NCBI GenBank assembly: GCA_003554615.1
Contig: PWGX01000027.1
Span: 38,619-102,618 of the forward strand
Reading direction: 5' to 3'
Length of the DNA: 64,000 nucleotides
DNA from: Syntrophomonadaceae bacterium
GTDB taxonomy: Bacteria; Bacillota; Dethiobacteria; DTU022
A program made the position numbers and the translations under genes. The number at the start of each line of letters is the position of its first letter. Within the stretch, counting starts at the first letter, position 1. A model generated the notes under the pieces. That model was not told the origin of the DNA. It did no database searches and worked only from the letters and a program-made list of their open reading frames with translations. Shown here piece by piece: positions 5,480-31,658 of this stretch.

Positions 5480-5688
5480 TTGAATAGCGCTACCTTCGAT
5501 CCATTTTATCTAAGGGTTGCCTCTTTGGGTGAGCTAGGGTAAATGGACGTCAGGGTACAGGTGGAAACGGCTGTGCCTCCCGTTGCGGAAAGAAGGATTG
5601 TTCGGATCTGACTGAGCATAATCGCATTTTCCAGCGGGAACTGCGATTTTTTTATGATTCAGATCCTGGGAGGGGAGTATCACCGGCC
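5480..5688 (+). ncRNA. candidate Moco/tungsten-cofactor riboswitch in tupA 5'UTR
   Basis: Long untranslated leader of a tungstate transporter operon. It contains …GUGCCUCCCGUUGCGGAAAGAAGGA…, which resembles conserved elements recalled for the Moco RNA motif. The structure was not folded and no covariance model was run. Confidence 0.3.
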
Positions 5689-14357: not shown

Positions 14358-15512
14358 CTATTCCAATTCAATAATATCTTCAAGGCCCCTGGTATAGGTT
14401 ATATCCAGCCCGGGAGTAACAAAAATCCCTTCCACTCCAGCCAGCTCTTCGATCAGTTCAAAACCATCCCCCGGACCGAGGATAAAGGCAAGCGTGGATA
14501 AAACATCCGCTTCCATTGTTGTATCGGCTACAACGGTAACGCTGGCCAGTTCTTTGGCCGGCATCCCGGTAGTGGCATCGAGAATGTGATGATATTTGAC
14601 CCCGTCTTCCTCAAAAGCGCGTTCATAGTCGCCCGAAGTATCCACGGCCTTATCGGTCAGGGCCAGAACAGCAATCATATCCCTTTCATCGCGGGGATTC
14701 CTGACCCCGATCCGCCATGGTTCACCATCGGGCCGGGTTCCAAGGAGCCCGATATCACCGGCATTGACATAGGCGTTTTCCACTCCCTCCTCCGAAAGAA
14801 TCTCCAAAGCCTGATCAACAATAAATCCCTTGGCAATACCGCCCAGCTCCAGCCCCGTGCCGGACACCGGTAGATAAATGGTTCTTTCTTCCGGGTCAAG
14901 CTCTACCAGTGAATAATCTACCAGCTGCAGGGTTTCTTCTATTTCTTCAGGTTGGGGAACCCGGTAGTCTTGATCGGAAAAGAATCCCCACAAATCAGTA
15001 AGCGGCGCTACGGTAGGATCAAAAGCCCCTTCACTGAGTTCGGCATATTCAAGAGCCCGTTCTGTCACATAAAAAACCTCGGGGCTGACCTGAACCGGCT
15101 TCCGGCCTGCGTTCTCGTTTACAGCAACTACATCGCTTTCCGGAATACTCCTGCTGAACAGCTCTTCCAGCCGTTCTATTTCAGTAAAAACTTCGTCTTT
15201 TATCTCTTCTGCTTCCCTTACCCCCCGGGCCTGAAATCTTAACTCAGCCATCGTATCCATTGTCATATGGGTATAGGTAAAAGTATCAACAGTATGAAAG
15301 GTCCGTGTGTAAAAGTACCCCATAAGCAGGAGCAGGACAAATACAGGTATAATATATACCGGCTTTAATAACCCGGCAGCCCGGCCGCTTTTTTTATCCG
15401 TCGGATCGTTATTCTTTCTCCCTGGCAAAATATGCGATACCCTCCTTGCCTGATCTAGAAAAATCGCCGGCCGAGAAAGCCCTGCCAGCATAAGATCAAA
15501 AGGACAGGGCAA
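14358..15512 (-). CDS. apbE: FAD:protein FMN transferase ApbE (membrane-anchored)
   Basis: N-terminal TM helix, then an ApbE fold (…GGIAKGFIVDQALEIL…AYVNAGDIGLLGTRPDGEPWRIGVRNP…VDTSGDYERAF…). Lies 55 bp downstream of the last antiporter gene on the same strand. Confidence 0.85.
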   Translation of the reverse strand: MPCPFDLMLAGLSRPAIFLDQARRVSHILPGRKNNDPTDKKSGRAAGLLKPVYIIPVFVLLLLMGYFYTRTFHTVDTFTYTHMTMDTMAELRFQARGVREAEEIKDEVFTEIERLEELFSRSIPESDVVAVNENAGRKPVQVSPEVFYVTERALEYAELSEGAFDPTVAPLTDLWGFFSDQDYRVPQPEEIEETLQLVDYSLVELDPEERTIYLPVSGTGLELGGIAKGFIVDQALEILSEEGVENAYVNAGDIGLLGTRPDGEPWRIGVRNPRDERDMIAVLALTDKAVDTSGDYERAFEEDGVKYHHILDATTGMPAKELASVTVVADTTMEADVLSTLAFILGPGDGFELIEELAGVEGIFVTPGLDITYTRGLEDIIELE

Positions 15513-15567
15513 ATGCGGACGATATCACCCTGTCCGCTCTATTACCGTTTTGGCCGACGATCCAATT

Positions 15568-17580
15568 TTAACGCCCGGTGTAAAAAATGACAACCAGCAC
15601 AGCGCCAAGCAGCAGGGCCAGGATCAGCTGGTCAAAATTCAGGTTCTTTGTAGTCCACTCGACTGGGTTGAAGCGAAGCCGACGGTTGATGGCGCCTTCC
15701 TCCTCTTCATCATGGCCGCCCTCCGATCTGTCGGCCATCCGGCGCATCGCTTCACCTGTTTTCAGGTATCCATCATCTATGCTTTCATCTAACCTCCGGG
15801 AACGGTCGGCCAGGCTCCGGGCCGCATCACCCGTCCTGGTATACCCTTCATCAATAGCCTGATCCAGGTAGCGGGTCCGATCGGCCAAGCCACGGCCGAT
15901 CTCGGAAGACCGTTGAAAGGCACTGTCAATCCCTTTATCCAGGGTGGTTATATACTGGCAGAACTGGTACAAATTCTGCCCGGTTTTCATGTAAAAGTTG
16001 TCAACAGATGAATCGACAGCAGTCCCGTACTGGCAGAGGCGCTTATACAGGGCTTTGCCCAGGGGATTAAAAATCATGTATTCGACGCTTACCCAGGGCG
16101 GCAAATGGATCCCGCGCTGTAAAATCGCAGCCAGGTTAAGGAAAACCAGAAGGCCTGCTAAAGCCAGCCTGACTGCACCCCAAATCCCGTCAAAGGTGTA
16201 GATCCCCACCACTTTTGAGGCATAGGGTATGATCGGGGCGATCATCTGTGGATAGACACCGAGTATAATACAGAAGGCTGCCGTCCCAATGATTGCCAGG
16301 ATGCTTGTAATCGGAATCTTTCTGTGAATTTTTGCCCTTCCTTTAATAAAACCAAAACCGATCAGTTTGCAGAAAGAAGCTGCCGTGCCGATGCTGGCTA
16401 CCATCAACATCGTTTCGGCCGGCCCCATATCATAAAAAGCATACTTAATCAGGTATTTGCTGACATAGCCGTTAAAAAGCGGGAACCCTGAAATGGCCAG
16501 GGCCCCTACAATACCACCGATTGTAGCCAGAGGCATTGCTTTCCAGATACTTTCTTTTTCCTGTTCTTCTTCTTCTGAATCAACATGGGTCAAGTCATGC
16601 AAATCTTCTGTATTGGTAGCGTAAAAAACCGCCCCCACGCTCATAAACAGCAGCGCCTTATAAAGCATATGGTTAACCACATGCAGAAGGGCCCCGTCGG
16701 TGGCCAGCTCCGTGGCCAGGCCTACCCCGGCCACCATGTAACCGACCTGGCTGATAATATGATAGGAGAGGAGGCGGCGCATGTTATGCTGGAGCATGGC
16801 CATGGTCACACCGGCCAGGGCCATGGCAGCACCCATGTACATAATTATTTCGCTCGGGGGTAAAATCCTGGCAATGGCAAAAACTCCGATCTTTGTCGTC
16901 AGCCCGGCCAGGATAACACTGGACGGAAAGTTGGCCGAAGGATATCCCCGGGCTACCCATAAATGAAAAGGCAGGAATGCCGCTTTAAAGCCAAAACCGA
17001 CGATGAAGAAAGCCAGGCCAGCCTCGGGTTTGGTCAGCACAAAACTCTGCGCCTGCTCGTAGTGGAGCAGGATCCCCAGTAAGACTATCAGCCCCCCGGC
17101 CAGGTGAAAAGAAAGGAAATATAAACCGGCCATCAAGGAATCGGGGGTTTTCCGGAGCAGGATTAAACCAGCTGTAGACAGGGTAAGCATTTCCCAGAAA
17201 ATAAAGAGGGTGACAAAGTTGTCTGAAAAAACAACCCCAACGGCGCTGGCCAGGGCTATCAGGGCTGCGGCCTGTTCGCTCGGCCTTGACAGCTGCAGCC
17301 CGTAAAGCAAAGCAAAAGCTCCGACCAGGGTAAATCCAAAAACGGCAATCCTGCTGTATTCATGTTCGCTAAACGACACCGGGGCCAGAACAACATCCCC
17401 GAACAATACTGCATAACCCAGCGTTGCTTCCGTCAAATCGTAGTAAGCTAAAAACAGCAGGGCCCCGATTACTCCAAGCATTAAAATATATCGCATCAGC
17501 CTGGGTCCGAATACAACACCCGGAACCAGTATTATGGGTAGCGCTATACCTGTTATCACAAAGATATCGATCCTAATCAC
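15568..17580 (-). CDS. NuoL/MrpA-type antiporter-like membrane subunit, paralogue L3, with repeat-containing C-terminal tail
   Basis: 670 aa. Proton-conducting-antiporter family motifs (…RLLSYHIISQVGYMVAGVGL…). About 14 TM helices, then a hydrophilic tail and a final TM helix. The tail carries three near-repeats (GLADRTRYLDQAIDEGYTRTGDAA / SLADRSRRLDESIDDGYLKTGEAM / RMADRSEG) and ends …KNLNFDQL…TGR. Confidence 0.8.
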   Translation of the reverse strand: MIRIDIFVITGIALPIILVPGVVFGPRLMRYILMLGVIGALLFLAYYDLTEATLGYAVLFGDVVLAPVSFSEHEYSRIAVFGFTLVGAFALLYGLQLSRPSEQAAALIALASAVGVVFSDNFVTLFIFWEMLTLSTAGLILLRKTPDSLMAGLYFLSFHLAGGLIVLLGILLHYEQAQSFVLTKPEAGLAFFIVGFGFKAAFLPFHLWVARGYPSANFPSSVILAGLTTKIGVFAIARILPPSEIIMYMGAAMALAGVTMAMLQHNMRRLLSYHIISQVGYMVAGVGLATELATDGALLHVVNHMLYKALLFMSVGAVFYATNTEDLHDLTHVDSEEEEQEKESIWKAMPLATIGGIVGALAISGFPLFNGYVSKYLIKYAFYDMGPAETMLMVASIGTAASFCKLIGFGFIKGRAKIHRKIPITSILAIIGTAAFCIILGVYPQMIAPIIPYASKVVGIYTFDGIWGAVRLALAGLLVFLNLAAILQRGIHLPPWVSVEYMIFNPLGKALYKRLCQYGTAVDSSVDNFYMKTGQNLYQFCQYITTLDKGIDSAFQRSSEIGRGLADRTRYLDQAIDEGYTRTGDAARSLADRSRRLDESIDDGYLKTGEAMRRMADRSEGGHDEEEEGAINRRLRFNPVEWTTKNLNFDQLILALLLGAVLVVIFYTGR

Positions 17581-17623
17581 TCCATTACTGATGGTAGTTT
17601 GTTGTATTTTATGGTTACTAATG

Positions 17624-17655
17624 TTTTAGACGATCATAGCTTAAAAGTCAACCAA
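17624..17655 (-). repeat. conserved ~32-bp intergenic block upstream of paralogue L3 (promoter-like TTGACT-17-TAAAAC on minus strand); second copy at 19805-19836 upstream of L2
   Basis: tgttttagacgatcatagcttaaaagtcaacc (17624-17655) versus tgttttagacgataaaggctttaaagtcaacc (19805-19836). Duplicated together with the paralogous genes. Confidence 0.6.
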
Positions 17656-17690
17656 TGCAAAACATCAGCGTTTTCATAAAGATATACATA

Positions 17691-19724
17691 TCAGTTTCCG
17701 TATAAAAACACAATAAAGAGGATCACCCCTAACATAAACACCAGCAGCAGGTTGTCGAAATTCAGGTTTTTAATAGACCATTGCTCCTGATCCCACCAGA
17801 AAAAGCGCTTAAAATGTTCTTTTAAAAGTCGGTCCCGATCCAGTCCTTTACCGTAAACACAGTATGCCGATTGACCCGCCTCATCATGGGCCGGGTCAGG
17901 GATTTCTTCCATATCGCTTGAGTAATACTCAGCATACTTGTCTTCTTTATCGGCATGCTCGTAAAATTGTCCCAGGGCCATATCATTGATATTTGTTTCC
18001 CGTAAGAAGAATGACAGGACCAGCTGCGGGATAGGTTGAATAATAAGTCTTTGCATACAAAGTATGGGTGGAGGAGTCCATTCAAACCAGCCCCTGGTCG
18101 ATGCCGGCAGGTAAATAAACAGGGCCAGCAGGGTTACCAGCACCATTTTGCGCAGGGGATACCACTCAAAAAAACCGAACCCGTAAAGGTTGGCAATGCC
18201 GTAATCGCTGAACTCCAGCAGCTGTGCCCCGGGTACCAGCAGCCGTTCCAAAAGAAAGTTGGGGAAAATGCCCACTACCAGCACCAGGGCGGCAAAAACA
18301 ACCATTACAAAGTTGGCTGAAAGCGGAAGCTTGTAGTCCCGATCCAGTTTTTCCGGCACCGGGCCAAGAAACACCCCCTGAAAAAGCTTTAAGAAATAAC
18401 AAATCGTTAAAGCGCTGGTGATGAAGAAAAAGCGCTCGGCGACATAAATGCCGTAAATATCAAAGTGCTTGTAGGACTCCAGCATGGCATCGTGAATCAA
18501 AGTTTTGCTGGCAAAACCGTTAAATCCTGGAATGCCGGCGATGCCCAGGGCGGCGATTACAAAAACAACTGTTACCAGAGGCATCTTCCTGGCCATGCCG
18601 CCCAGACGGGATAAATCCTGTTCGTGGGTCAGCATGTAAACGACCCCGATCATGGAAAAGAGCCCGGCCTTGAAAACAGCATGATTGGCGATGTGATATA
18701 GAGAACCGGTAAAACCCATAGCTCCTTCTAAGCCCATAAACACGGCCACGCCAAGACCGGCGGCAATATATCCCATCTGGCTGATGCTGCTGTAAGCTAA
18801 AATTCTCTTGGCATTGCTTTGCAGCAGTGCCATCAAAGCCCCGGCCAGCATGGTCACAATCCCGATCCACATCAGGATATAGCCGCTGTTAAAGATAAAG
18901 GACCAGTCGGCGGTACTGCCCTCACCTGCAGGCCGGAACAGGATCAGGCTGACTCTCAGGATACCGTAAGCCCCGGCCTTGATCATAATCCCCGACAGCA
19001 GGGCGCTGGCCGGCGAAGGGGCCACGGGGTGGGCCAACGGAAGCCAGATGTGCAGGGGCACCAGGCCGGCTTTAATGCCAAAGCCAATCATAAAAAGAAC
19101 CAGGATGGCCAGGCGCTGCGCTCCCAGCTCTTCAAGCGCTGGAACCATGGCCAGGTGTCCGATATTGCCGTACACCAGAAGGAGGCCAAAGAAAAGCGAA
19201 AGGCCGCCAATTATAGCCATGTAAAGATACAGAGAACCGGCCTGCAGGGCTTCCCGGTCCTGCTTGTGGATAACCAAAACCAAAGAGCTAAATGTCATAA
19301 TCTCAAAAAAGATAAACAGTAAAAAAAAGTCGCCGGCAAATACAATCCCGAGCATAGCTCCCAGTGTAAAAATCAGGAAGCTGTAGTAGCGACGCCGGTT
19401 ATGCTCATAATCCATGTAAGAGAATGAAAATAAAATAGCCAGAAAATAAACCAGGGTGATCAGGACGGCAAAGACCCAGCTGATAATATCAATGCTAAAT
19501 AAAAGGCTAAACTGCAAGAATTCGATCAGGTCGCAGCCAACTTCCCCAACGAGAACATAAGGTAGGAGCCAGATTACACCGGCCAAAGAGAATAACGAGG
19601 CTAAAATAGAAACCACTTTACGAACCAGCATCTGATTTTCAGGGAAAAAGTACAGCACTATCCCGGTCAACATGGGAACCAGAACCAGGTAGAGGGGAAT
19701 ATATGTGGTAAATGTAACCTCCAC
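17691..19724 (-). CDS. NuoL/MrpA-type antiporter-like membrane subunit, paralogue L2
   Basis: 677 aa. Motif LAYSSISQMGYIAAGLGVAVFMG. Roughly 75% identical by eye to paralogue L1 (19890-21920). C-terminal tail ~110 aa hydrophilic, then …SIKNLNFDNLLLVFMLGVILFIVFLYGN. Confidence 0.8.
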   Translation of the reverse strand: MEVTFTTYIPLYLVLVPMLTGIVLYFFPENQMLVRKVVSILASLFSLAGVIWLLPYVLVGEVGCDLIEFLQFSLLFSIDIISWVFAVLITLVYFLAILFSFSYMDYEHNRRRYYSFLIFTLGAMLGIVFAGDFFLLFIFFEIMTFSSLVLVIHKQDREALQAGSLYLYMAIIGGLSLFFGLLLVYGNIGHLAMVPALEELGAQRLAILVLFMIGFGIKAGLVPLHIWLPLAHPVAPSPASALLSGIMIKAGAYGILRVSLILFRPAGEGSTADWSFIFNSGYILMWIGIVTMLAGALMALLQSNAKRILAYSSISQMGYIAAGLGVAVFMGLEGAMGFTGSLYHIANHAVFKAGLFSMIGVVYMLTHEQDLSRLGGMARKMPLVTVVFVIAALGIAGIPGFNGFASKTLIHDAMLESYKHFDIYGIYVAERFFFITSALTICYFLKLFQGVFLGPVPEKLDRDYKLPLSANFVMVVFAALVLVVGIFPNFLLERLLVPGAQLLEFSDYGIANLYGFGFFEWYPLRKMVLVTLLALFIYLPASTRGWFEWTPPPILCMQRLIIQPIPQLVLSFFLRETNINDMALGQFYEHADKEDKYAEYYSSDMEEIPDPAHDEAGQSAYCVYGKGLDRDRLLKEHFKRFFWWDQEQWSIKNLNFDNLLLVFMLGVILFIVFLYGN

Positions 19725-19889
19725 GGGCTAGATCACCTCATTATAAAGATAAATCTGTAAAAAAACCATAATCCATATTTTAATATAATTTTATTATTTA
19801 CTACTGTTTTAGACGATAAAGGCTTTAAAGTCAACCTGCTACTAAAAAGCGTGTTCTTGTTATCTTGAGTAACAGTGTCGATTGACCAA

Positions 19890-21920
19890 TCAATTGACGT
19901 ATAAAAACGCGATAAAAAGAATAACTGCCAGCACAAAAGCAAAAAGAAGGGTATCAAAACCTAAATTTTCCACGCGCCACTTACACTGATCCCACCGGGG
20001 AGAGCAATAAAAATCTTTTTCAAGATGCCTGCCCCGATCGAGTCCTTTGCCCGATATGTAGTAGGCAGATTGCCCCGTTTCATCATCAGCTGGATCCTGA
20101 ACTACTTCCATGTCGCTTAAATACTCAGTTTGTAAATTTTCTTTAACAGGATGCTCGTAAAACTGACCCAGGGCCATATCATTTACATTGATTTCCCTGA
20201 AAAGAAACTTCAAGACCAGATTCCACAGAGGCTCAAAAATTAGTTTTTGAATGCTCAGCCATGACGGCGGAGTCCAGTCAAACCAGCCCCTGGCAGACGC
20301 CGGCATGTAAATGAATAAGGCCAACAGAACAACAACCAGCGCTTTTTGCAAGGGGAACCATTCATAAAAATCAAACCCTGGCAGGTGCTCGATGTTATAT
20401 GCGCTAAAGTCCAACAACTGCGCTCCCGGTATAAGTAGCCGTTCCAGCAGCAGGTTCGGCAAAACCCCTACCCCCAAAACCAGAATGGCATAAACAACCA
20501 GGGCAATACTGGCTGAAACAGGCATTTTATAATCCTGGTCAAGTTTCCCAGGAACAGGGCCCAAAAACACCCCCTTAAACAACTTAATAAGGTAACAAAT
20601 CGTCAGGGCTCCAGCAATGATAAAAAAGCGTTCAGCAACAAAGATACCGTAAATATCATAATGCTTATAGGCTTCCAACATAGCATTATGAAGCAAAATC
20701 TTGCTGGTAAACCCGTTAAATCCCGGTATACCAGCGATTCCCAGGGCGGTAATTACAAAGGTAACCGTCACCAGGGGCATCTTTCTGGCCATCCCGCCCA
20801 GGCGGGAGAGGTCCAGTTCGTGGGTCAGCAAGTAAACAACCCCGATCATGGTAAAGAGCCCGGCCTTAAAAACAGTGTGGTTGGCAATGTGATAAAGAGC
20901 GCCGGTAAAACCTTTTGCTCCTTCCAACCCCATAAACACGGCCACACCAAGGCCGGCGGCAATATATCCCACCTGGCTGATACTGCTGTAGGCCAGAATC
21001 CTCCTGGTATTGCTCTGCAGCAAAGCCATCAAAGCCCCGCCAATCATAGTCACAATCCCGATCCACATCAGGATATAGCCGCTATTAAAAATAAAGATCC
21101 AGTCGGAGACACTGCCTCCATCTGCCGGCCGGAACAGGATCAGGCTGACCCTCAGAATACCGTAAATTCCGACCTTACTCATGATACCAGCCATTACGAC
21201 TGTAACCGGTGAGGGAGCCGCTGAATAAGCCGGGGGTGCCCATATATGAAACGGAACCAGGCCAATTTTTATCCCAAAACAAATCATGAAAAGGAATAAA
21301 ATAGGCAATCGCTGGGCTCCCAGCTCTTCAAGCACCGGGATCATGTCTAGATGACCACTTTTATCATATAAGAGCAGGATGGCAAATAACAATGCCAAAC
21401 CGCCTATAATATTCATGTACAGGTAAAGCGAACCTGCCTGCAAAGAATCACGGTCCTGTTTATGTATAACCAGGACAAATGAACTCAAAGTTAAAATTTC
21501 GAAAAAAATAAAAAACGAAAAAAAATCACCGGCGAAAACTACCCCCAGGATCGCACCAAGGGTAAAAAACAAGAAGCTGTAGTAGCGGCGCGGATTATGA
21601 TCCTGATCCATATAAGAAAAAGAAAACAATATAACCAGAAAATAGACCAGGGTAATCAGGCTCGCAAAAATCCAGCTGATTAGATCGATGCTGAAATAAA
21701 GCCCTAATTCCATGAATTTGGTCAGGCCACAGAAAATTTCACCTTGCAACACATAAGGAAGAAGCCAGATCACACCGATCATTGAAAACAAGGAGACAAC
21801 CATGGCTCCCACTTTGTGAATTAGCAATCGGTCTTTAGGAAACAAGTACAGCAATATCCCCGTCAACATGGGCAATAAGACCAGGTATAAAGGGACAAGT
21901 GTGTTAAATGTAACCACCAC
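19890..21920 (-). CDS. NuoL/MrpA-type antiporter-like membrane subunit, paralogue L1
   Basis: 676 aa. A tandem duplicate of paralogue L2: the sequences align along their whole length. Tail ends …RVENLGFDTLLFAFVLAVILFIAFLYVN. Confidence 0.8.
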   Translation of the reverse strand: MVVTFNTLVPLYLVLLPMLTGILLYLFPKDRLLIHKVGAMVVSLFSMIGVIWLLPYVLQGEIFCGLTKFMELGLYFSIDLISWIFASLITLVYFLVILFSFSYMDQDHNPRRYYSFLFFTLGAILGVVFAGDFFSFFIFFEILTLSSFVLVIHKQDRDSLQAGSLYLYMNIIGGLALLFAILLLYDKSGHLDMIPVLEELGAQRLPILFLFMICFGIKIGLVPFHIWAPPAYSAAPSPVTVVMAGIMSKVGIYGILRVSLILFRPADGGSVSDWIFIFNSGYILMWIGIVTMIGGALMALLQSNTRRILAYSSISQVGYIAAGLGVAVFMGLEGAKGFTGALYHIANHTVFKAGLFTMIGVVYLLTHELDLSRLGGMARKMPLVTVTFVITALGIAGIPGFNGFTSKILLHNAMLEAYKHYDIYGIFVAERFFIIAGALTICYLIKLFKGVFLGPVPGKLDQDYKMPVSASIALVVYAILVLGVGVLPNLLLERLLIPGAQLLDFSAYNIEHLPGFDFYEWFPLQKALVVVLLALFIYMPASARGWFDWTPPSWLSIQKLIFEPLWNLVLKFLFREINVNDMALGQFYEHPVKENLQTEYLSDMEVVQDPADDETGQSAYYISGKGLDRGRHLEKDFYCSPRWDQCKWRVENLGFDTLLFAFVLAVILFIAFLYVN

Positions 21921-21952
21921 GTGCTAAATCACCTCAATCGAACATTGGATTC

Positions 21953-23461
21953 TTAAAACCACCCTCCCTTTAATAAGAAGTCCGAGGTCATCTGGGACAA
22001 ATCAAATGGCACATTTATAGGTGACAGCCCGAAAATAACAGTGAAAATGGCCAGTATTATCATTGGGGCCAGCATCTTTGGGGGGACATCCTGGACACTT
22101 AATTTTAAAGCATGTCCCTGCTCCTCATCCCCGACCATCTCGAAAAAGGCGGGGACAATGATCGGCAGATAGTAAAGAGCGTTAAGCAAACTGCTGATTA
22201 AAAGCACAATGACATAGAAGGTAGCATTGGCATCAAGGGCCCCCAATCCCAGGGTCCATTTGCTCAAAAACCCGCTCAAAGGCGGAATTCCGATCATGGC
22301 CAGGGCAGCAATAGAAAAGCAGGCCATAGTGAAAGGCATTTCCCGGCCGATGCTGCCCAGCTCAGAAATAGTCCGTTTGCCGGTTTTCCATATGATCGCT
22401 CCTGCGGCAAGGAAGAGGCAGCTCTTCATGATAGCATGGCAAAAGATGTGAAACACGGCCCCAATGATGGCATTTTCATTGAGCACGCTCAAACCTAAAA
22501 GCACGTACCCCATCATCCCCACACTTGAATAAGCCAGGCGCCTCTTAAGGTCATTCTGGGTCAGGGCAACAGCGGAGCCCAGTAAAATAGTTATAACAGC
22601 CAGGACTCCCAGGACTATATCCCAGTTGTTAGTTTGCATAACTTCAATCGAAAAGGCGTTAAATATAACCCTGAACAAGCCGTAAGCCCCGGTTTTCAGC
22701 ATTACCCCGGAAAGGAGGGCGCTGGCGGGTGAAGGGGCAACCGGGTGGGCATCCGGGAGCCAGACGTGAAGCGGGAACATCCCGGCCTTCATCCCGAAGC
22801 CAATCAAGAAACACATAAAGGCCAGGAAAGCGATCAGGGTCCCTTCTTCTATAATTGATCCCACCCCGAACGATACAGTTCCGCCAAGCTCAAAGGTAAT
22901 GATAATGCCAAAGAAGAGGGCCAAACCGCCGATAATGGTCATAACCAGGTACTTGTAGCCGGCTTTCAGGGCCTCTTCCGTTTCCTCGTGAACTACCAGG
23001 ATATAAGAAATAAGAGACATTAACTCAAAAAACACAAAGAGAGTAAAAAAGTCGCCGGCCAGGAAAATACCAAGACAGCTGCCCAGAGTAAACATCAAAA
23101 CCGGGTAATAACGGCTCCCCCCGTGTTCTTTCGCCATGTAGTCAATAGAATAGATCGTGCTCAGAAGCCAGATGAAGGAAGCAATAGCTGTCAGGCTAAA
23201 ACTAAGAACATCAAGCCTGATCGAAATTTCCAGATTCGGCAATATCTCAAAGAATGTATGTTGAACAATGCCGCCTCTCACTACAAAAGGATAGAGAGTC
23301 AGGACCAGCAGGAAAGTAATTGCGCTTGTCACCACGGCCAGGATATCGCGTAGTTTTTCTGAGCGGTCGCTTACCGACATCAGGATCGGGGTCATTATGA
23401 TTGGGAAAAAGATTACAACCAGGATTACTGTTATTGCTGTCGCTTCATCCACCGAAGCCAC
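21953..23461 (-). CDS. mrpD: MrpD/NuoM-N-type antiporter-like subunit (paralogue D2)
   Basis: 502 aa, 14 TM helices. Motifs …RLAYSSVGMMGYVLLGL… and HPVAPSPASALLSGVMLKTGAYGLFR. Confidence 0.8.
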   Translation of the reverse strand: MASVDEATAITVILVVIFFPIIMTPILMSVSDRSEKLRDILAVVTSAITFLLVLTLYPFVVRGGIVQHTFFEILPNLEISIRLDVLSFSLTAIASFIWLLSTIYSIDYMAKEHGGSRYYPVLMFTLGSCLGIFLAGDFFTLFVFFELMSLISYILVVHEETEEALKAGYKYLVMTIIGGLALFFGIIITFELGGTVSFGVGSIIEEGTLIAFLAFMCFLIGFGMKAGMFPLHVWLPDAHPVAPSPASALLSGVMLKTGAYGLFRVIFNAFSIEVMQTNNWDIVLGVLAVITILLGSAVALTQNDLKRRLAYSSVGMMGYVLLGLSVLNENAIIGAVFHIFCHAIMKSCLFLAAGAIIWKTGKRTISELGSIGREMPFTMACFSIAALAMIGIPPLSGFLSKWTLGLGALDANATFYVIVLLISSLLNALYYLPIIVPAFFEMVGDEEQGHALKLSVQDVPPKMLAPMIILAIFTVIFGLSPINVPFDLSQMTSDFLLKGGWF

Positions 23462-23526
23462 CTCCAGGGTTCATTATATAGTTCAATTAAGTACACGGCA
23501 GTATTTTAAAACAGTCCCAGGGATTG

Positions 23527-25029
23527 TTAAAAAAACAATGCTAATGCCTCATCCAGCAATACTATGGCAGGCCTGGAGAAAACTCCGAAAAAGATTATGG
23601 CTGCCATCCCGACAATAAGCGGGATCAACATCTTGCGGGGGACCGGCTTTACCTGATGCTGGAACTGTTCCTGCTGCATAAAAGCATTGACGATGATCGG
23701 CATGTAATAAACCGCGTTCAACAAACTGCTGGCCAGGATGATTACTACAAAAATGGGCCTTCCGATTTCCAGGGCACCAAGGGCCAGGTACCACTTGCTG
23801 ATCAGTCCCCCGGTCCCCGGAATACCGATCATAGAAGCGCTTCCAATGGTAAAGGCAATCATGGTGATCGGCAATACCTGCCCGATCCCTCCCAGCTGTT
23901 TGATCTGGCGAATCCCGGTGGTGTAAATAATTATCCCGGCACACATAAAAAGCATTGATTTCATGATCGCATGCACCAATAAATGATAAAAACCACCGGT
24001 CATGGCGATAATGTCGTCCAAACCGATACCGAGAAATACATAGCCGATCTGGCCGATACTGGAATACGCCAGCATCTTTTTTAAATCAACCTGAACCATC
24101 GCAAATATAGAACCAAACATGATCCCCATAGAAGAAAGCCAGAGCACGATCTCATTCAAGGGTATAGACTCAAGCAGCGAGCGTGGAAACAGCTGGTAAA
24201 ACATAATAAAGAGGGCAAATGCGTATATCTTAATCACCAGGCCCGAAAGCATTGCGCTCGATGGCGAAGGTGCCGAAGCATGGGCGTCGGGGAGCCACAC
24301 ATGGAGCGGGAATAGGGCCGCCTTGGTTCCAAAAGCCACTATGAAAAGGGCCGCTGCGGCAAACATGTTGTTCGGATATAATTCAACGGCCTCAGGCAAA
24401 GCCGCATTAACCAGGTCGTAATTCATCTGCCCGGTAACCATGTAAATCATGGCCACCCCGAGCAGGAAACAGCCAGTTCCCATGGCGCTCAAAATGAGAT
24501 ATTTGAAGCTTGCTTCCAGACAGGCGCGATCTTCCTTAATTGAAATAATAGCACAGGCAGAGATAGCGCATATTTCCATTAACACGAACAAGTTAAAGAG
24601 GTCATTGGTCAGGGCCATGCCGGCCATCGAGCCGACCACCAGGGCATAGAGGGTATAATACCAGCCCATAACTTCCGTTTTTAATTCATGTTCCAGGTCT
24701 TTCAAAGCATAAACCATGATCCAGAGGCTGACGGCCAGGACAATCAAAAGCATATAAACCCTGAGCAGGTTAACTTTGAACTCAATGCCCCACGGCGGAG
24801 GCCAGCCGCCCATATAATAGGTAAATTCACCAACCTGTAAAACCTGGACCAACAGGTAAACCGCCATCACCAGGGCCAGGAACAGGGAGGCAATCAAGGC
24901 CGGAGCACTGGCCTTTCTGGCCCAGCGGTATAAAATTGGGGACAAAAATGAAATGCCTAAAAGAATTGCTAAGATTAATGCTGGAAAATGATTGGTTAAT
25001 TCCACTACTCCCGGCTCCTTATCAGGCAA
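23527..25029 (-). CDS. mrpD: MrpD/NuoM-N-type antiporter-like subunit (paralogue D1)
   Basis: 500 aa. Motif …KMLAYSSIGQIGYVFLGIG…. Start overlaps mrpC. Confidence 0.8.
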   Translation of the reverse strand: MPDKEPGVVELTNHFPALILAILLGISFLSPILYRWARKASAPALIASLFLALVMAVYLLVQVLQVGEFTYYMGGWPPPWGIEFKVNLLRVYMLLIVLAVSLWIMVYALKDLEHELKTEVMGWYYTLYALVVGSMAGMALTNDLFNLFVLMEICAISACAIISIKEDRACLEASFKYLILSAMGTGCFLLGVAMIYMVTGQMNYDLVNAALPEAVELYPNNMFAAAALFIVAFGTKAALFPLHVWLPDAHASAPSPSSAMLSGLVIKIYAFALFIMFYQLFPRSLLESIPLNEIVLWLSSMGIMFGSIFAMVQVDLKKMLAYSSIGQIGYVFLGIGLDDIIAMTGGFYHLLVHAIMKSMLFMCAGIIIYTTGIRQIKQLGGIGQVLPITMIAFTIGSASMIGIPGTGGLISKWYLALGALEIGRPIFVVIILASSLLNAVYYMPIIVNAFMQQEQFQHQVKPVPRKMLIPLIVGMAAIIFFGVFSRPAIVLLDEALALFF

Positions 25030-25376
25030 ATTTCGTCGTAATCAACAGTTCCGTAATAGCGGTAAATTTTTACAACCAGGCTTAAAGCATAAGCGGTAAT
25101 ACTAACGGCAACCACGATCCCGGTCAGCATCAATGATCCGGGAAGGGGGTTTACATACAGGACTTCGTTGGCCGGAGCCGTTACAATCGGAGCTGCTCCC
25201 CCGTAGGTGTATCCAGTAGCCACAAACATCAAAAAAACAGAGGTGTCCATGATATTCATCGCAATTACTTTTTTGATCAGATTCGAGTGAGTGAGCATGG
25301 TATGCATACCGATGACAAAGAGCAGAATCGCCACCATGTAATAGTAATTGTGGGCAATCTTAATGAGCATCTCCAC
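25005..25376 (-). CDS. mrpC: Mrp antiporter subunit C (NuoK-like)
   Basis: 123 aa, 3 TM helices. Position and size match MrpC/MbhG. Confidence 0.65.
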   Translation of the reverse strand: MEMLIKIAHNYYYMVAILLFVIGMHTMLTHSNLIKKVIAMNIMDTSVFLMFVATGYTYGGAAPIVTAPANEVLYVNPLPGSLMLTGIVVAVSITAYALSLVVKIYRYYGTVDYDEICLIRSRE

Positions 25377-25803
25377 TTTTCTCTTCCCCCTCGATAATGT
25401 TATAGAATAAAGTTACAATGGTACTGGCCACCTTAACCCCAAGGAAAGCCGTGATAATGAAAATCGCTCCGGCGCTGAATAATTCCCCGGCTTCACCCAG
25501 GGGAAAACCGGCCCCCCGGTTGGCCAGAAAATTGGCCCCAACAGCAACTCCCACCAGGCCGGTAACAACAAACCCTAGCGCTCCCCCGCTTTCCAGGACC
25601 GATGCGGTGGTATGAGAAATCTGCTTGGCCCCGACTTCCAGGTTAAAGGAAAGGGCCACCAGGACAAGGCTCGCTCCAAATATCGCTCCTCCAGAGAATC
25701 CCCCACCGGGAGACAGGTGGCCGTGCAGGATTACATAAATCCCGTAAACCTGGATAAAGGGCGTCACAAGCCTGCTGGTTATACGTACAATTTGGTCTTC
25801 CAC
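25360..25803 (-). CDS. mrpB: Mrp antiporter subunit B (MnhB domain)
   Basis: 147 aa. Signature HGHLSPGGGFSGG (compare Bacillus MrpB AGHYTPGGGFVGG). Confidence 0.7.
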   Translation of the reverse strand: MEDQIVRITSRLVTPFIQVYGIYVILHGHLSPGGGFSGGAIFGASLVLVALSFNLEVGAKQISHTTASVLESGGALGFVVTGLVGVAVGANFLANRGAGFPLGEAGELFSAGAIFIITAFLGVKVASTIVTLFYNIIEGEEKSGDAH

Positions 25804-25821
25804 GGCTAACTACCCCCCTTG

Positions 25822-26157
25822 CTAATGGGATTTCAGGGTTGCTATTACCGCGGCAATGGCCACAAAAAGGACCGTCGCTTCACCCAGGGTGTCGAAAGCG
25901 CGGTAATCGATAATAACACTGCTTACGATATTGACGGCACCGGTATCGGTTATCCCCTGTTCCATGTATCGGGCCGGTATTTCATTGAATACCGGGTTAG
26001 TTGGATCCCCAAAAGGCGGCATTTCCGCAACAGTAAAACTGAAGAAAAATCCAATCAGACCGACCAGCAAAATTGTAAACACACCACGAGCCTGGAGGCG
26101 CAATAGATAGCGCATGGCAAAGATGGCTGCGATTATGATAAACAGAATATCTTCCAC
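25822..26157 (-). CDS. MbhE-like small membrane protein (MrpA C-terminal-domain-like; IDYRAFDTLGE motif)
   Basis: 111 aa. Motif NIVSSVIIDYRAFDTLGEATVLF is typical of the MrpA C-terminal / MnhB-related domain. Confidence 0.55.
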   Translation of the reverse strand: MEDILFIIIAAIFAMRYLLRLQARGVFTILLVGLIGFFFSFTVAEMPPFGDPTNPVFNEIPARYMEQGITDTGAVNIVSSVIIDYRAFDTLGEATVLFVAIAAVIATLKSH

Positions 26158-26181
26158 TCAAATATCCCCCCTACAGGAACC

Positions 26182-26442
26182 TTATTCAGCCCGCCTGGTT
26201 TTACTGATAGCCGCTATCAATAGCAGGGTCGTTACCCCGGTGCCCAGGGCCGCTTCAACCATGGCCACGTCGGGTGAGCTGAGCTGCTGCCATACAATAG
26301 CCATAATCAACCCAAAAGAGGCAAAAACGATCACAGCGCTAAGCATATCCCGGATCTGGGCCACCGCGATAGCACAAACAATAAGAAACAGTAACAACAA
26401 AGCATTTAAAACTTCAGTCAGTACTTCGGTCATCTGGCTCAC
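26182..26442 (-). CDS. MbhD-like small membrane protein (DUF4040-like; MrpA C-terminal-domain-like)
   Basis: 86 aa with 2-3 TM helices. Positioned like MbhD in mbhABCDEFGH-type clusters. Confidence 0.5.
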   Translation of the reverse strand: MSQMTEVLTEVLNALLLLFLIVCAIAVAQIRDMLSAVIVFASFGLIMAIVWQQLSSPDVAMVEAALGTGVTTLLLIAAISKTRRAE

Positions 26443-26746
26443 TCCTGCCGATAATGGGGGTGATCCCGGTTGAATAGGCAGCTCTGGCTATAACGTGGGC
26501 AGCCGTCGGGTTGGTGATTAAAATAAAAATAATTAACAGGGCCAGCCTGATCGCCACCGCCAGTTCACTTTGCAAAGCGAGGGACAACAAAACCAGGCCC
26601 GCACCCAGGGTGTCGCACTTGGTCGTCGCGTGAAGGCGGTTATAAACATCGGGCAGCCTCAGCAGGCCGATAGTGGCAACCGCCAGGAAAAATATTCCCA
26701 CGATAAATGATAATATCGACAATATATAAAGTCCCGTATTCAGCAA
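26414..26746 (-). CDS. mrpG: Mrp antiporter subunit G
   Basis: Motif LRLPDVYNRLHATTKCDTLGAG matches the MrpG/MnhG signature (LPDVFTR.HAATKA.TLG). Confidence 0.75.
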   Translation of the reverse strand: MLNTGLYILSILSFIVGIFFLAVATIGLLRLPDVYNRLHATTKCDTLGAGLVLLSLALQSELAVAIRLALLIIFILITNPTAAHVIARAAYSTGITPIIGRSEPDDRSTD

Positions 26747-26754
26747 AGTTTCGA

Positions 26755-27036
26755 TCAGTCCAGGGCTCCTTTCTCCAGGTACTTGGCCACGCCAATTGTG
26801 GTAATAAAGCCCATCAGGGCATAGACCATGGCAATATCAAGAAAATAAACCTGTTCATAAATCCGGGCGATCAGGGTAATAATGATCAAAGTATAGGTCG
26901 TAATGATATTGATGGCCACTACCCTGTCTGGAGCCGTCGGGCCGGCCAGGGCCCTAATCATGGAAAAGAAAATCATGAGCATGACCAGGATCGCCCCTAT
27001 AGTATACGTATAATCCAATATTTGTTCAAAAATCAT
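26755..27036 (-). CDS. mrpF: Mrp antiporter subunit F
   Basis: 93 aa. Motif GPTAPDRVVAINIITT (MrpF DRVVA motif). Confidence 0.7.
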   Translation of the reverse strand: MIFEQILDYTYTIGAILVMLMIFFSMIRALAGPTAPDRVVAINIITTYTLIIITLIARIYEQVYFLDIAMVYALMGFITTIGVAKYLEKGALD

Positions 27037-27530
27037 CCCTCATCACGCTCCATCTGCTGAAGCCTGGCAATGGGATGCCAGGTCTGAACCTCTTCACCGC
27101 TTTCTATGGTCAAAGCATGAATCAGAAAATCCTTCCCATCTGCCAGGACCGTTAAAGTCCCGGGGCACATGGTAATCGAATTGCCCAGAAGCACCCGGCT
27201 GGCCATGCTTTCTATTTCCACCCTCAGCGGGACCATATTCGGGACTATGGGCATTTTTGGGTGCAAAACTATATAGGCTACCTGGAAATTAGCTATAAAA
27301 ATATCTCGGAGCAGTTTAAAGAAATAGCCCAATATCCAAAGAACAGTTTTAAAGGTAACAGGCGGCCTGTCTTCGATTGTAATGAGCAGGTTGCGGTTAA
27401 AATAAACCACAAAAGCAGAAGCGGCAAACCCGACCGCCATCTGGGGCCAGTCAAACCGACCGCTGATAGCCACCCAGAAAGCAAACAGGACCAGGGTAAT
27501 CCCAATATAATTCAACCAGTTCTTACTCAT
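27033..27530 (-). CDS. mrpE: Mrp antiporter subunit E
   Basis: 165 aa. N-terminal TM helices plus a MrpE-like C-terminal region. First gene after rnfB (88-bp gap). Confidence 0.65.
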   Translation of the reverse strand: MSKNWLNYIGITLVLFAFWVAISGRFDWPQMAVGFAASAFVVYFNRNLLITIEDRPPVTFKTVLWILGYFFKLLRDIFIANFQVAYIVLHPKMPIVPNMVPLRVEIESMASRVLLGNSITMCPGTLTVLADGKDFLIHALTIESGEEVQTWHPIARLQQMERDEG

Positions 27531-27618
27531 CTTAATCAGCCACCCGGCAGTTTAATTATATAAACCCGAAAGTATAATAATATTTTCACATGCTCTTAAA
27601 TTTAATATAACAATCCCG

Positions 27619-28482
27619 CTAACCATCTTCTTCAGATACTGCAGCAGCGGTTGGTTGGTCGAGATCAGCCAGTTTCTTTGGTATTGCCGCACGCGGATAA
27701 ATGGTTACCGGTGGACATACAGGGACGCATTTTCCGCAGTCGTCGCACTTGTCAAGATCGATTACGGCCAGGTTGTCATCCATCTCAATTGCTTCCTGGG
27801 GGCAAATTTTGACACAGGCCCTGCAGGCTATACAACCCACCGAGCAGACCTTTGATACGCTTTTACCCCTATCATGGGAACTGCACAATACCAGGTGCCC
27901 CTGGTTGGACCGGCGGGGCAGGGTTTTGATCAAATCCCGCGGGCAGGCATTCACACAGAGGCCGCACCCGGTACATGCTTCCTGATCTACAACGGGCAGT
28001 CCGTGCGGGCCGATTTCTATCGCTTCAAATGGGCAGGCCCAAGCACAGTCACCCAACCCCAGGCAACCGTAAGTACAGGCCTTGAAACCGCCGTAAAAGC
28101 GTCCGGCAACAGCACAGTTTTTTACTCCTTCGTATATAAACCGGTCAGGCGCTTTTTCCTTGTCGCCAATGCAAAAAACCGTCGCCACCAGCGACTCTGT
28201 TTCGGCAAAATCAATCCCTAGTTCAGCAGCCAGAGCTTTTGCCGTCTCGGTCCCTCCCGGAATGCAGCCGGAAGGATTTACTTCACCTTTAACTACGGCC
28301 TCGGCAAACTGGGAGCAGCCGGCATAACCGCAGGCGCCACAATTGGCTCCGGGCAAAATATCTTTAACTTTGTCCACCCTCGGATCTACCTTGACGGCAA
28401 ACACTTTTGCGGCCAGGGAAAGAAGTATTCCGAAAACCAGGCCGATCAGGCCCAGGGCGATGATTGCATATATTATTTGCAC
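27619..28482 (-). CDS. rnfB: Rnf complex subunit B (polyferredoxin)
   Basis: N-terminal TM helix, CGACGYAGC motif, and multiple 4Fe-4S CxxCxxCxxxCP motifs. Confidence 0.9.
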   Translation of the reverse strand: MQIIYAIIALGLIGLVFGILLSLAAKVFAVKVDPRVDKVKDILPGANCGACGYAGCSQFAEAVVKGEVNPSGCIPGGTETAKALAAELGIDFAETESLVATVFCIGDKEKAPDRFIYEGVKNCAVAGRFYGGFKACTYGCLGLGDCAWACPFEAIEIGPHGLPVVDQEACTGCGLCVNACPRDLIKTLPRRSNQGHLVLCSSHDRGKSVSKVCSVGCIACRACVKICPQEAIEMDDNLAVIDLDKCDDCGKCVPVCPPVTIYPRAAIPKKLADLDQPTAAAVSEEDG

Positions 28483-28544
28483 GGCTTATTTCACCTCGTA
28501 AAATTAGTGACTCAAGCTTTTCAGCATTAATCATTTAAGGCAGG

Positions 28545-29126
28545 CTACAGGGTAAGCATACCCCTGAAACCTTGAAAAGCCAGGGATAGAATCCCCGCTG
28601 TAATCAAAGTCACCGCCGAACCCTTTAGTACATCCGGCACATCAGCCAGTTCCAGGCGTTCCCTGATCCCGGCCATGATCACAAGGGCCAGGGAAAAACC
28701 GATAGAAGCTGCGATTCCAAACACCACCGCTTCAATAAAAGCAAATTCTTCCCTTACCGCCAAGAGAGTTACAGCCATAATGGCACAGTTGGTGGTAATC
28801 AGGGGCAGGAAAATACCAAGTCCCTGGTACAGGGTCGGGCTGATCTTGCGCAGTGTGGTTTCAACAAGCTGAACCAGGGAGGCAATGACCAGGATAAATG
28901 TAACAATTTGCAAATACTCCAGGTTTAAAGGGATAAGGACAAAAGTATAGAGCAGCCAGGTAACCAGAGTGGCCATGCTCATTACAAAAATAACCGCCAT
29001 ACTCATCCCCACTGCGGTTTCCATCTTTCTCGAGACGCCCAAAAAGGGGCAAATCCCGAAGAAACGCTGCAACACAAAGTTTTCTACCAGGATATAGATA
29101 AATATTATCGATAACAGTCGTTCCAT
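28545..29126 (-). CDS. rnfA: Rnf complex subunit A
   Basis: 193 aa, 6 TM helices. RnfA/NqrE family (…GICPFLGVS…). Confidence 0.9.
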   Translation of the reverse strand: MERLLSIIFIYILVENFVLQRFFGICPFLGVSRKMETAVGMSMAVIFVMSMATLVTWLLYTFVLIPLNLEYLQIVTFILVIASLVQLVETTLRKISPTLYQGLGIFLPLITTNCAIMAVTLLAVREEFAFIEAVVFGIAASIGFSLALVIMAGIRERLELADVPDVLKGSAVTLITAGILSLAFQGFRGMLTL

Positions 29127-29198
29127 ATTAACCTCCTGCCTCCGGTAGTACTATCTTCCATTTCCTCATTTCTTTAACCTGCATAGGGCGGTATATTA

Positions 29199-29825
29199 TC
29201 AAATATTTAACTTTTTAAAAAGCACATTCGCAAGACCAAGCAAAAGCCCCAGGGCAATGAAAGCTCCGGGCGGCTGGCCAAACAAACCCATTGGTTCAAA
29301 ACCTTCCCCAAACAGCAGGATGGCACTTTCAGGATCGGGCCCCATGATCGTCCCTTGCCCCGCTACTTCGCGGACCAGGGCCAGAATACCCAGGGCCAGG
29401 GTAAAACCTATCCCAACCCCGACTCCATCGACCAGCGAACGCAGGACAGGTTTCTTGCTGGCAAAAGCTTCGGCCCGCCCCAGGATAACGCAGTTCACCA
29501 CGATCAGGGGCACAAATACACCCAGGGCTTCATAAAGGGCCGGTTGAAAAGCCTGCAAAACCATTTCAACCATCGTAACAAAAGTAGCTATAACCACAAT
29601 AAAACAGGGAATCCTGACCTGGGCGGGAATATAGTTCTTCAGGCTGGCAATCACTACGTTGGACGCAATTACAACCGCTGTTGTCGCCAACCCCATTCCC
29701 AGGCCGTTAATAAAATAAGCGGTAACCCCGAGAACCGGGCACATCCCCAGCAGTAAACGGAACACCGGGTTTTCCCTGATTATTCCCCGTGACAAGTCAT
29801 CAACATAAGGATTATGTTCTGCCAT
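29199..29825 (-). CDS. rnfE: Rnf complex subunit E
   Basis: 208 aa. RnfE/NqrD family (…LLGMCPVLGVT…). Confidence 0.9.
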   Translation of the reverse strand: MAEHNPYVDDLSRGIIRENPVFRLLLGMCPVLGVTAYFINGLGMGLATTAVVIASNVVIASLKNYIPAQVRIPCFIVVIATFVTMVEMVLQAFQPALYEALGVFVPLIVVNCVILGRAEAFASKKPVLRSLVDGVGVGIGFTLALGILALVREVAGQGTIMGPDPESAILLFGEGFEPMGLFGQPPGAFIALGLLLGLANVLFKKLNI

Positions 29826-31637: not shown

Positions 31638-31658
31638 ATCCTTTCCCGGGTTGCGGAA

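Follow-up and report, generated by a model that had tools for sequence, protein, structure and literature searches.

An Rnf-linked Mrp-type gene cluster with three tandem antiporter-like proteins bearing position-specific C-terminal tails

In a 64,000-nucleotide stretch of the genome of a Syntrophomonadaceae bacterium (GenBank assembly GCA_003554615.1, contig PWGX01000027.1, positions 38,619 to 102,618; hereinafter the window), we analyzed three tandem genes coding for antiporter-like membrane proteins, named here La, Lb, and Lc in their order of transcription, together with the Mrp cluster that they close (mrpEFG-mbhD-mbhE-mnhB-mrpC-Da-Db-La-Lb-Lc). Each of the three proteins combines a core of 14 transmembrane helices (TM) with a fifteenth helix (TM15), a cytoplasmic linker, a W..KNL(N/G)FD motif, and a last helix (TM16). 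The reading that we moderately favor is that they are functional proton-translocating distal subunits of one extended Group-3 Na+/H+ antiporter (MrpA-less and with an Mbh-type gene order), in which each L protein would clamp its neighbor. The operon family and its association with Rnf are already in the literature; we found no description of multiple clamp-bearing subunits, of position-specific and swappable tails, or of a helix built of 25-residue repeats such as we report here.

Results

Three intact paralogs with a shared C-terminal extension

An earlier note, made from the letters of the window alone, had pointed to three consecutive genes of NuoL/MrpA type, and the open reading frame (ORF) calls confirm them as intact minus-strand genes (19890-21920, 17691-19724, and 15568-17580). 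The frameshifts or pseudogene-like features that the note had named as counting against them did not turn up: the frames are intact and are repeated in independent assemblies. In particular, the five-subunit arrangement of Da, Db, La, Lb, and Lc was found again in the independent metagenome-assembled genome (MAG) L005 (SKMK01000036), whose Lb is 96% identical, and on a soda-lake contig from Kulunda (JGI, L004), and is therefore not an assembly artefact. Relative to Da and Db (~500 aa), the three L proteins carry a C-terminal extension of ~170 aa beyond TM14, which consists of TM15, a hydrophilic stretch, and a strongly hydrophobic last helix. The layout given in the note, with about 14 core helices followed by TM15 and a final helix, is thus borne out, and its hydrophilic segment of 90-110 aa fits La and Lb (100-101 aa from the PxWLS helix start to the NLNFD motif) but not Lc (152 aa).

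La and Lb have a protein identity of 71% and a DNA identity of 73%, with a dS (synonymous substitutions per site) of ~1.4, which is saturated, and an omega (ratio of nonsynonymous to synonymous rates, dN/dS) of 0.13 since the duplication; Lc is 28-30% identical to La and Lb. In a neighbor-joining tree, La and its 94% identical orthologue P0018 nest on a long branch within the clade of Lb orthologues. These data indicate that La is a fast-evolving tandem duplicate of Lb and that the duplication is lineage-specific and not young. The tandem duplication proposed in the note hence stands, whereas its supposed recency does not, since the saturated synonymous sites mean that the event was not recent in absolute terms. 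When compared with their counterparts in the sister MAG L005, La has a dN/dS of 0.30, Lb of 0.18, and Lc of 0.13; on the tails only, the ratio ranges from 0.18 to 0.56, with few substitutions behind the tail values. The ratios point to purifying selection on all three L genes.

Public gene calls (P0121 and P0122) place the start of Lc seven codons further downstream than the ORF calls used here, which take the GTG at 17580 (window 17560-17580), and give a protein of 663 aa. Three further ORFs lie antisense or out of frame inside Lb and La (18819-19322 on the plus strand, 20661-21212 on the plus strand, and 18520-18870 on the minus strand) and have translations rich in Gly, Pro, His, and Gln; they are almost certainly shadows of the membrane-protein genes and not genes.

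Sequence relatives, fold, and proton-path residues of the cores

The best PDB sequence matches of La and Lb are MbhH (211 bits), MbsH' (6u8y_X, 161 bits), and MrpA (160 bits), with NuoL scoring ~82 bits, and that of Lc is again MbhH, at 96 bits. None of the L proteins reaches an NCBIfam cutoff: the best model for Lc, which is a member of a broader family, NF009310/PRK12668 ('Na(+)/H(+) antiporter subunit D'), gives 377.5 bits against a cutoff of 564, and the match covers profile positions 20-536 of 584, leaving the tail outside. A Foldseek search with the AlphaFold2 (AF2) model of Lb, whose core has a predicted local distance difference test score (pLDDT) of ~90, recovered MrpA first (7qru_A, E 2.6e-24, query-based TM-score [TMq] 0.71, ~629 columns), with MrpD aligning at a TMq of 0.65 over ~520 columns; the structural alignment with MrpA goes ~100 columns past the MrpD core and includes TM15-TM16. 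For the AF2 model of Lc (core pLDDT >90), NuoL and NdhF align over 610-690 columns, NuoL over ~650.

The proton-path residues described for Mrp antiporters comprise a Glu/Lys pair, a TM8 Lys with a His-x3-Lys, and a TM12 Lys (PMC9568556). An alignment of the five antiporter-like subunits of the window shows all of these as invariant, with the His-x3-Lys completing a Lys-His-Lys triad, and in the alignment of Lb to 7qru_A the corresponding positions fall on MrpA Glu140, Lys223, and Lys408 (residue numbers taken from PMC9568556). The mobile TM8 histidine of MrpA, His248, falls in a gap in Lb, whose TM8 reads LLSGIMIKAG, as in MbhH and MrpD. This TM8 histidine also has an equivalent in NuoL. Judged by alignment and model together, the L cores are MrpD/MbhH-like, with the C-terminal architecture of MrpA, NuoL, and MbsH'. 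The NuoL/MrpA-type label of the earlier note suits their architecture and fold; it fails as a statement of orthology, given the best sequence matches to MbhH and MbsH', the gap at His248, and the encoding of the MrpA C-terminal domain apart, as MbhD and MbhE.

Lc has in addition a 12-residue acidic insertion (VDSEEEEQEKES, residues ~328-340, window 16560-16600) in the loop before TM12, and the five-protein alignment shows La, Lb, Da, and Db to be without it.

Two kinds of tail

All tails open after TM15 with a conserved helix start, P-x-W-[LV]-S-[IV]-[EQ], and close with the motif and TM16. The motif takes the form W648-RVE-NLGFD656 in La, W648-SIK-NLNFD657 in Lb, and W642-TTK-NLNFD650 in Lc. 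Its occurrence in other genomes, a check which the earlier note had proposed, goes beyond chance: the strict NL[NGS]FD was found in the last 60 residues of 95 of the 120 La/Lb-family homologues and 48 of the 120 Lc-family homologues, and many of the remaining ones have a looser N-[LIF]-[ND]-F-D before the last helix.

Between these two ends, the tails are of two kinds. The internal type, seen in La and Lb, has a hydrophobic amphipathic helix (~554-577), an acidic, Pro-containing spacer, and a basic amphipathic helix (~626-649) that leads into the motif; across loci its linker is constant at 100-102 aa, as against 147-195 aa in the terminal type. The latter, seen in Lc, contains 3-6 tandem repeats of 25 residues (3-4 in Lc itself) with the consensus D-x-x-[LI]-D-x-x-Y-x-K-[TS]-G-x-A-A-R-[RK]-L-A-D-R-x-x-x-L, and the repeat anchors of homologues lie 25 or 50 residues apart. 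A helix turning by 100 degrees per residue completes almost exactly seven turns in 25 residues, and a hydrophobic stripe therefore stays in register from repeat to repeat. For Lc residues 499-620, one sharp peak at 100 degrees dominates the hydrophobicity power spectrum (18.6 versus 3.1 for the next), and the hydrophobic moment of 0.4-0.6 is that of an amphipathic helix in phase over ~120 residues. In its AF2 model, the Lc linker has helices at 499-565 and 579-620 (pLDDT 40-75), whereas most of the La and Lb linkers (residues 575-659) is predicted to be disordered, with only a ~20-residue helix after TM15. The lateral-helix-like tail which the note had envisaged is accordingly recovered in part, as the TM15-linker-TM16 architecture; on these predictions, a long NuoL-like horizontal helix is plausible for Lc only, and not for La and Lb.

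Conservation among orthologues amounts to 79% in the core, 72-74% in the helix after TM15, 71% in the Lc repeats, and 77-84% in TM16, and reaches 96% (Lc orthologues) and 88% (Lb orthologues) in the W..KNLNFD block; the acidic spacer drifts most, at 41-49%. Thus, despite the predicted disorder of the La and Lb linkers, the tails do not show the lack of conservation outside this genome that the note had set out as evidence against a selected function, and their dN/dS lies below 1. The last ~170 residues of the L proteins match no Pfam family, and searches with isolated tails at E-values up to 10 gave nothing credible; a phmmer comparison of the Lc tail with all PDB sequences likewise returned chance matches only (E at least 0.4). 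An exhaustive HMMER search of 1.84 billion cluster representatives with the Lc tail gave 34 matches, among which no full-length stand-alone tail protein or other host family was evident. Since nearly all of the 34 are C-termini of L-type proteins, the repeat tail is confined to one clade.

Tail type and position in the array

Across the loci, L proteins in an internal position have the internal tail with its short amphipathic helix and acidic spacer, and those in the terminal position have the repeat tail. In genomes with a single L protein, the core is 61-64% identical to that of Lb versus 34% to that of Lc, and the tail is 40-44% identical to the Lc tail versus 36-40% to the Lb tail. Every such single-L protein has the repeats, which the internal tails have lost, and Lb carries an internal tail wherever Lc is present. 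The opposite combination is found in the chimeras P0146, P0147, and P0149, in which an internal tail resembling that of Lb (43-62% identical) follows a core resembling that of Lc (68-72% identical); P0146, in the sole chimera locus retrieved (L042, Logan SRR33871324 contig, 1300-3132), sits between Db and a normal Lc. These combinations indicate that tails have been exchanged between core lineages and that the kind of tail tracks position and not core lineage, as is expected if the tail contacts its neighbor in a fixed array.

A scaling of terminal-linker length with the number of antiporter-like subunits, as for the lateral helix (HL) of complex I, was considered and rejected: the linker has 158 aa with two subunits, 170-195 aa with three, 147-180 aa with four, and 152 aa with five.

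An MrpA-less Mrp cluster between rnf and apbE

The L genes belong to a single unbroken run of minus-strand genes (14358-32993; Table 1), transcribed in the order rnfC, rnfD, rnfG, rnfE, rnfA, rnfB, MrpE, MrpF, MrpG, MbhD, MbhE, MnhB, MrpC/NuoK-like, Da, Db, La, Lb, Lc, and ApbE. By gene content this is a Group-3 Mrp system, its cluster coding for MrpE, MrpF, MrpG, MrpB-domain proteins, MrpC, and MrpD-like proteins (PF01899, MrpF NCBIfam models, PF03334, PF13244, PF20501, PF04039, PF00420, and PF00361). It contains no mrpA: MbhD and MbhE are separate genes, no L protein reaches past TM16, and scans with Pfam and NCBIfam found neither an MrpA nor a NuoH gene in the cluster. All ORFs between rnfC and apbE could be assigned, and none of them codes for an MbhM/NuoH-type anchor or a NuoB/D-like redox module; a DabA-like gene, the partner in DAB/Mps-type CO2 hydration, was not seen in the cluster, although no dedicated search was made for it. 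The apbE product scores 120 bits against NF007774, under the 498-bit cutoff of that model, and PF02424 (ApbE) is found in its homologues at the equivalent position in L001, L043, and many MAGs.

Table 1. Features of the rnf-mrp-apbE region, in window positions.
Feature	Positions	Strand	Basis or remark
rnfCDGEAB	27619..32993	-	directly upstream of mrp; phmmer cross-matches to Pfam-annotated Rnf genes of N. thermophilus
Small Mrp subunits (block)	25005..27530	-	Pfam and NCBIfam matches
MrpE	27530-27033	-	PF01899
MrpF	27036-26755	-	MrpF NCBIfam models
MrpG	26746-26414	-	PF03334
MbhD	26442-26182	-	PF13244
MbhE	26157-25822	-	PF20501
MnhB	25803-25360	-	PF04039
MrpC/NuoK-like	25376-25005	-	PF00420
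Da, MrpD/MbsH-like, 500 aa, without tail	23527..25029	-	Pfam; best PDB match MbsH, 214 bits
Db, MrpD/MbhH-like, 502 aa, without tail	21953..23461	-	Pfam; best PDB match MbhH, 237 bits
La, antiporter-like, 676 aa, internal-type tail	19890..21920	-	PF00361 and PF00662
NLGFD motif of La, residues 652-656	19953..19967	-	read from sequence; NLSFD in the L005 orthologue
40-nt promoter-like block (GGTTGAC-N17-TAAAAC), La-Lb spacer	19797..19836	-	34/40 bases match the Lb-Lc copy
Lb, antiporter-like, 677 aa, internal-type tail	17691..19724	-	PF00361 and PF00662
NLNFD motif of Lb, residues 653-657	17754..17768	-	read from sequence
Second copy of the 40-nt block, Lb-Lc spacer	17614..17653	-	kept in the Lb-Lc spacers of L005-L012, L024, and L026
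Lc, divergent antiporter-like, 670 aa, terminal-type tail	15568..17580	-	PF00361 only
Tandem 25-residue repeats of Lc, residues ~522-620	15721..16017	-	long amphipathic helix, predicted
NLNFD motif of Lc, residues 646-650	15631..15645	-	directly before TM16
apbE (FAD:protein FMN transferase)	14358..15512	-	directly downstream of Lc; NF007774, 8e-35

The earlier note had described the intergenic blocks upstream of La and Lb as conserved. We indeed recovered a ribosome-binding-site block there (TGAGGTGATyTAGCmC), and found a second, 40-nt block (GGTTGACwTTwAAGC...ATCGTCTAmAAC) downstream of both La and Lb, which reads TTGAC-N17-TAmAAC. By hand count on the spacers, 34 of its 40 positions are identical between the two copies, though the synonymous sites of La and Lb are saturated. 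The block is kept before Lc even among MAGs with no more than 70-85% identity between their Lb proteins, and is duplicated before Lb in the window; the spacers before Lb and Lc have 110-165 nt versus 0-40 nt elsewhere in the operon. This block may be an internal promoter or the binding site of a regulator; a sigma-70 scan does not call it, its -10 element being without the final T. We also considered it as an RNA element and rejected this: it has no Rfam match, and its folds are not significant (z = -1.7, the value of the Lb-Lc copy, and -0.2).

Full-length homologues of the L proteins are numerous, and come from soda-lake metagenomes and from the cultured haloalkaliphiles Natranaerobius thermophilus, Natranaerofaba carboxydovora, Dethiobacter alkaliphilus, and Ca. 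Syntrophonatronum. The order rnfCDGEAB-mrp-apbE, followed by Hpre_diP_synt_I, Maf, and RadC, is common to the window, N. thermophilus, and Natranaerofaba, and rnf-mrp-apbE also occurs in about 25 loci of soda-lake 'Syntrophomonadaceae' MAGs. The set of antiporter-like genes differs between these loci, with D+L in Natranaerobiales, Da+Db+L (L ~759 aa) in many MAGs, Da+Db+Lb+Lc in other MAGs, and Da+Db+La+Lb+Lc in the present lineage and L005; the relatives thus have 2, 3, or 4 such subunits, and this lineage 5. Most likely, the cluster is co-transcribed, or at least co-inherited, with Rnf and the flavin transferase ApbE in haloalkaliphilic anaerobic Firmicutes.

Some variations on this theme deserve mention. 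In Natranaerobiales, moaC lies between rnfB and mrpE (L001 5505-5984, L043 5460-5948); the window is without moaC, and the gap there is 88 nt. Izemoplasmatales and Bacillales MAGs (L027-L032) have Mrp clusters of the same order with one or two tandem L genes for proteins of 703-708 aa, which have a PKWLSIEY helix start and a shorter linker and are without the strict NLNFD motif; the flanks fetched for these clusters showed no rnf genes. Their multi-L clusters suggest that more than one clamp-bearing subunit per array arose more than once. Lastly, orphan L-type genes without mrp genes nearby are present in Dethiobacter alkaliphilus (L003 10001-12349, 782 aa) and Natranaerofaba carboxydovora (L044 10001-11860, 619 aa).

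Discussion

A proposed clamped array

In MrpA, NuoL, and MbsH', the TM15-linker-TM16 element runs along the cytoplasmic face of the neighboring subunit and is anchored beyond it; the lateral helix has been described as universal in the superfamily, tying the antiporter-like proton paths together with a length that matches their number (PMC8165549). We propose that each L protein of the present cluster would likewise be an MrpD/MbhH-like 14-helix core fused to such an element, and that the small subunits, Da, Db, La, Lb, and Lc would form a linear array in gene order, each L stapling its proximal neighbor. The internal clamps of La and Lb would consist of a short hydrophobic amphipathic helix and a flexible acidic tether, and the terminal clamp of Lc of the long amphipathic helix made of 25-residue (seven-turn) repeats. 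Each added proton module would increase the H+ taken up per Na+ expelled and thereby make the exchange more electrogenic, which in turn would allow a larger inverted pH gradient to be sustained at ~pH 10 and molar Na+, with the Na+-Rnf supplying membrane potential and the Na+ cycle.

Several points weigh against this proposal. Every solved relative has exactly one lateral-helix element (PMC7684303, PMC8165549); three of them per array are without precedent and may be sterically awkward. The length of the terminal linker (147-195 aa) is not in proportion to the subunit number, which goes from 2 to 5, and since at 1.5 angstrom per residue it is far longer than a two-subunit array, it is not a simple straight helix spanning the neighbor. 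Furthermore, the La and Lb linkers are mostly predicted to be disordered and the predicted Lc helices have low pLDDT, the promoter-like block kept before Lb and Lc hints at separate expression, and orphan L-type genes exist in Dethiobacter alkaliphilus and Natranaerofaba.

Separate expression would suit a scheme in which La, Lb, and Lc are alternative distal subunits, with Da-Db joined by one L at a time as chosen by pH, Na+, or K+ via internal promoters, yielding isoforms of different ion affinity or stoichiometry. The conservation of the TTGAC-N17-TAmAAC block before Lc in many MAGs and its duplication before Lb, the long spacers at these two places, and the fact that sister genomes function with a single L all speak for such a scheme. 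We nevertheless consider it unlikely: tail type tracks position, in the chimeras too, which fits neighbors in an array and not interchangeable caps, the internal tails are without the repeats that all single-L proteins have, and the block fails the sigma-70 scan at the -10 element. The orphan genes, which lie far from any mrp cluster, are instead compatible with L proteins that are autonomous single-subunit Na+(K+)/H+ antiporters, or modules docking in trans, and that are merely parked in the operon, with a tail for homo-oligomerisation or membrane-surface binding. A lone MrpA-like protein of N. thermophilus, Nt-Nha (nther0107), does catalyze electrogenic antiport in E. coli vesicles (PMC2764116); however, it could not be placed in the L family, and an attempt to link it through the homologues of the orphan Lc-type protein found no N. 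thermophilus protein among them. The position of the L gene after mrpD and before apbE is, moreover, constant across distant genera, and Ito et al. (2017, PMC5703873) state that canonical Mrp generally needs all its subunits for activity. Autonomy of the L proteins accordingly strikes us as improbable.

The strict rnf-mrp-apbE order across Natranaerobiales and soda-lake Syntrophomonadaceae could also reflect a physical supercomplex of Rnf with the Mrp array, in which Rnf would serve as input module and the repeat tail as a tether or coupling rod, the whole being a redox-driven pump comparable to complex I or MBH. In its fullest form, Rnf turnover would drive or gate a chain of up to five proton modules held together by clamps of their own. 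Consistent with such an assembly, the terminal linker is much longer than a span across the neighbors requires and, by its inferred topology, cytoplasmic, on the same side as RnfB and RnfC. Yet the cluster has no NuoH or MbhM-type coupling subunit, no Rnf-Mrp interface is known, no rnf was detected in the flanks fetched for the related multi-L clusters of Izemoplasmatales, and the synteny is explained more simply by two Na+-cycle machines being co-regulated; we give both the supercomplex and its Rnf-driven five-module form little credence. Finally, we reject the notion that the extra copies are decaying duplicates or assembly artefacts: the long branch of La and its dN/dS, the highest among the three, would speak for it, but the reading frames are unbroken and turn up again in independent assemblies, cores and tails have a dN/dS well below 1, and no proton-path residue has been lost.

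Comparison with known systems

By its published definition, Group 3, to which the cluster belongs, comprises the Mrp systems that lack mrpA and have mrpD only, sometimes in several copies (PMC8415708). Like the stand-alone mrpEFGBB'CD of Pyrococcus furiosus (PMC8415708), the cluster has the same small-subunit set and the order E, F, G, two MrpB-domain genes (here MbhD and MbhE as split genes, plus MnhB), C, and MrpD-type; unlike it, the cluster codes for five antiporter-like subunits versus one or two, three of them have the TM15-linker-TM16 extension, and it lies between rnf and apbE. The rnf-linked Mnh locus of Natranaerofaba carboxydovora and Natranaerobius thermophilus is an orthologous operon with the same downstream genes, and has already been linked to the coupling of H+ and Na+ gradients, beside the Na+-Rnf (PMC8359318); it differs in that it has a single D, a single L (748-806 aa, terminal-type tail), and a moaC gene separating rnfB from mrpE, as against two D and three L here.

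MbsH' of the archaeal MBS (6u8y_X) resembles the L proteins in having a 14-TM core, then TM15, a loop, and TM16, and in lacking the MrpA C-terminal domain; its HL and TM16 hold the neighboring pump (PMC7684303). Unlike the present cluster, which has no redox-module genes, MBS has one such subunit and this contacts the redox module (MbsM, MbsL), and the L tails, at 100-195 aa, are longer and without sequence similarity to any PDB chain. MrpA's N-terminal domain (Bacillus/Anoxybacillus, 7qru_A and 6z16_A), whose lateral helix is found at the cytoplasmic face, with two TM helices to anchor it (PMC9568556), is the best structural match of Lb and has the Glu/Lys pair, the Lys-His-Lys triad, and the TM12 Lys in common with it. 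Lb differs from MrpA in being without the mobile TM8 His248, in not having TM17-21 fused to it, and in being closer in sequence to MbhH (211 versus 160 bits).

Variants of complex I that have a second NuoM and a longer NuoL helix reportedly contain four antiporter-like subunits; the array proposed here would resemble them in concept, in that extra antiporter-like modules are accommodated through a lateral-helix element, and would exceed them in number if it is assembled as inferred. Unlike complex I, which has one helix whose length scales with the subunits (PMC8165549), each added distal L brings its own element, and there is no length scaling. Five subunits in one array would also exceed the one to three per complex, with a single lateral helix, that are described in reviews (PMC7684303, PMC8165549), in keeping with the remark in the earlier note that five antiporter-like units are unusually many.

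The role of the lateral helix, as a clamp or a coupling rod, has long been debated, and the structurally characterized members of the Mrp and complex I superfamily in the literature have one each. The natural series of 2, 3, 4, and 5 antiporter-like subunits, with tails swapped by position, could be used to test the role of this element and could show whether added proton modules change the H+/Na+ gear ratio, and it bears on how anaerobes that live close to the thermodynamic limit maintain an acidified cytoplasm at pH 10 and multi-molar sodium.

Elsewhere in the window, we detected a molybdenum/tungsten cofactor riboswitch (RF01055, 57.9 bits, E 2.8e-11) at 5482-5611 on the plus strand, upstream of a gene for a PBP_like_2 solute-binding protein (5689-6564).

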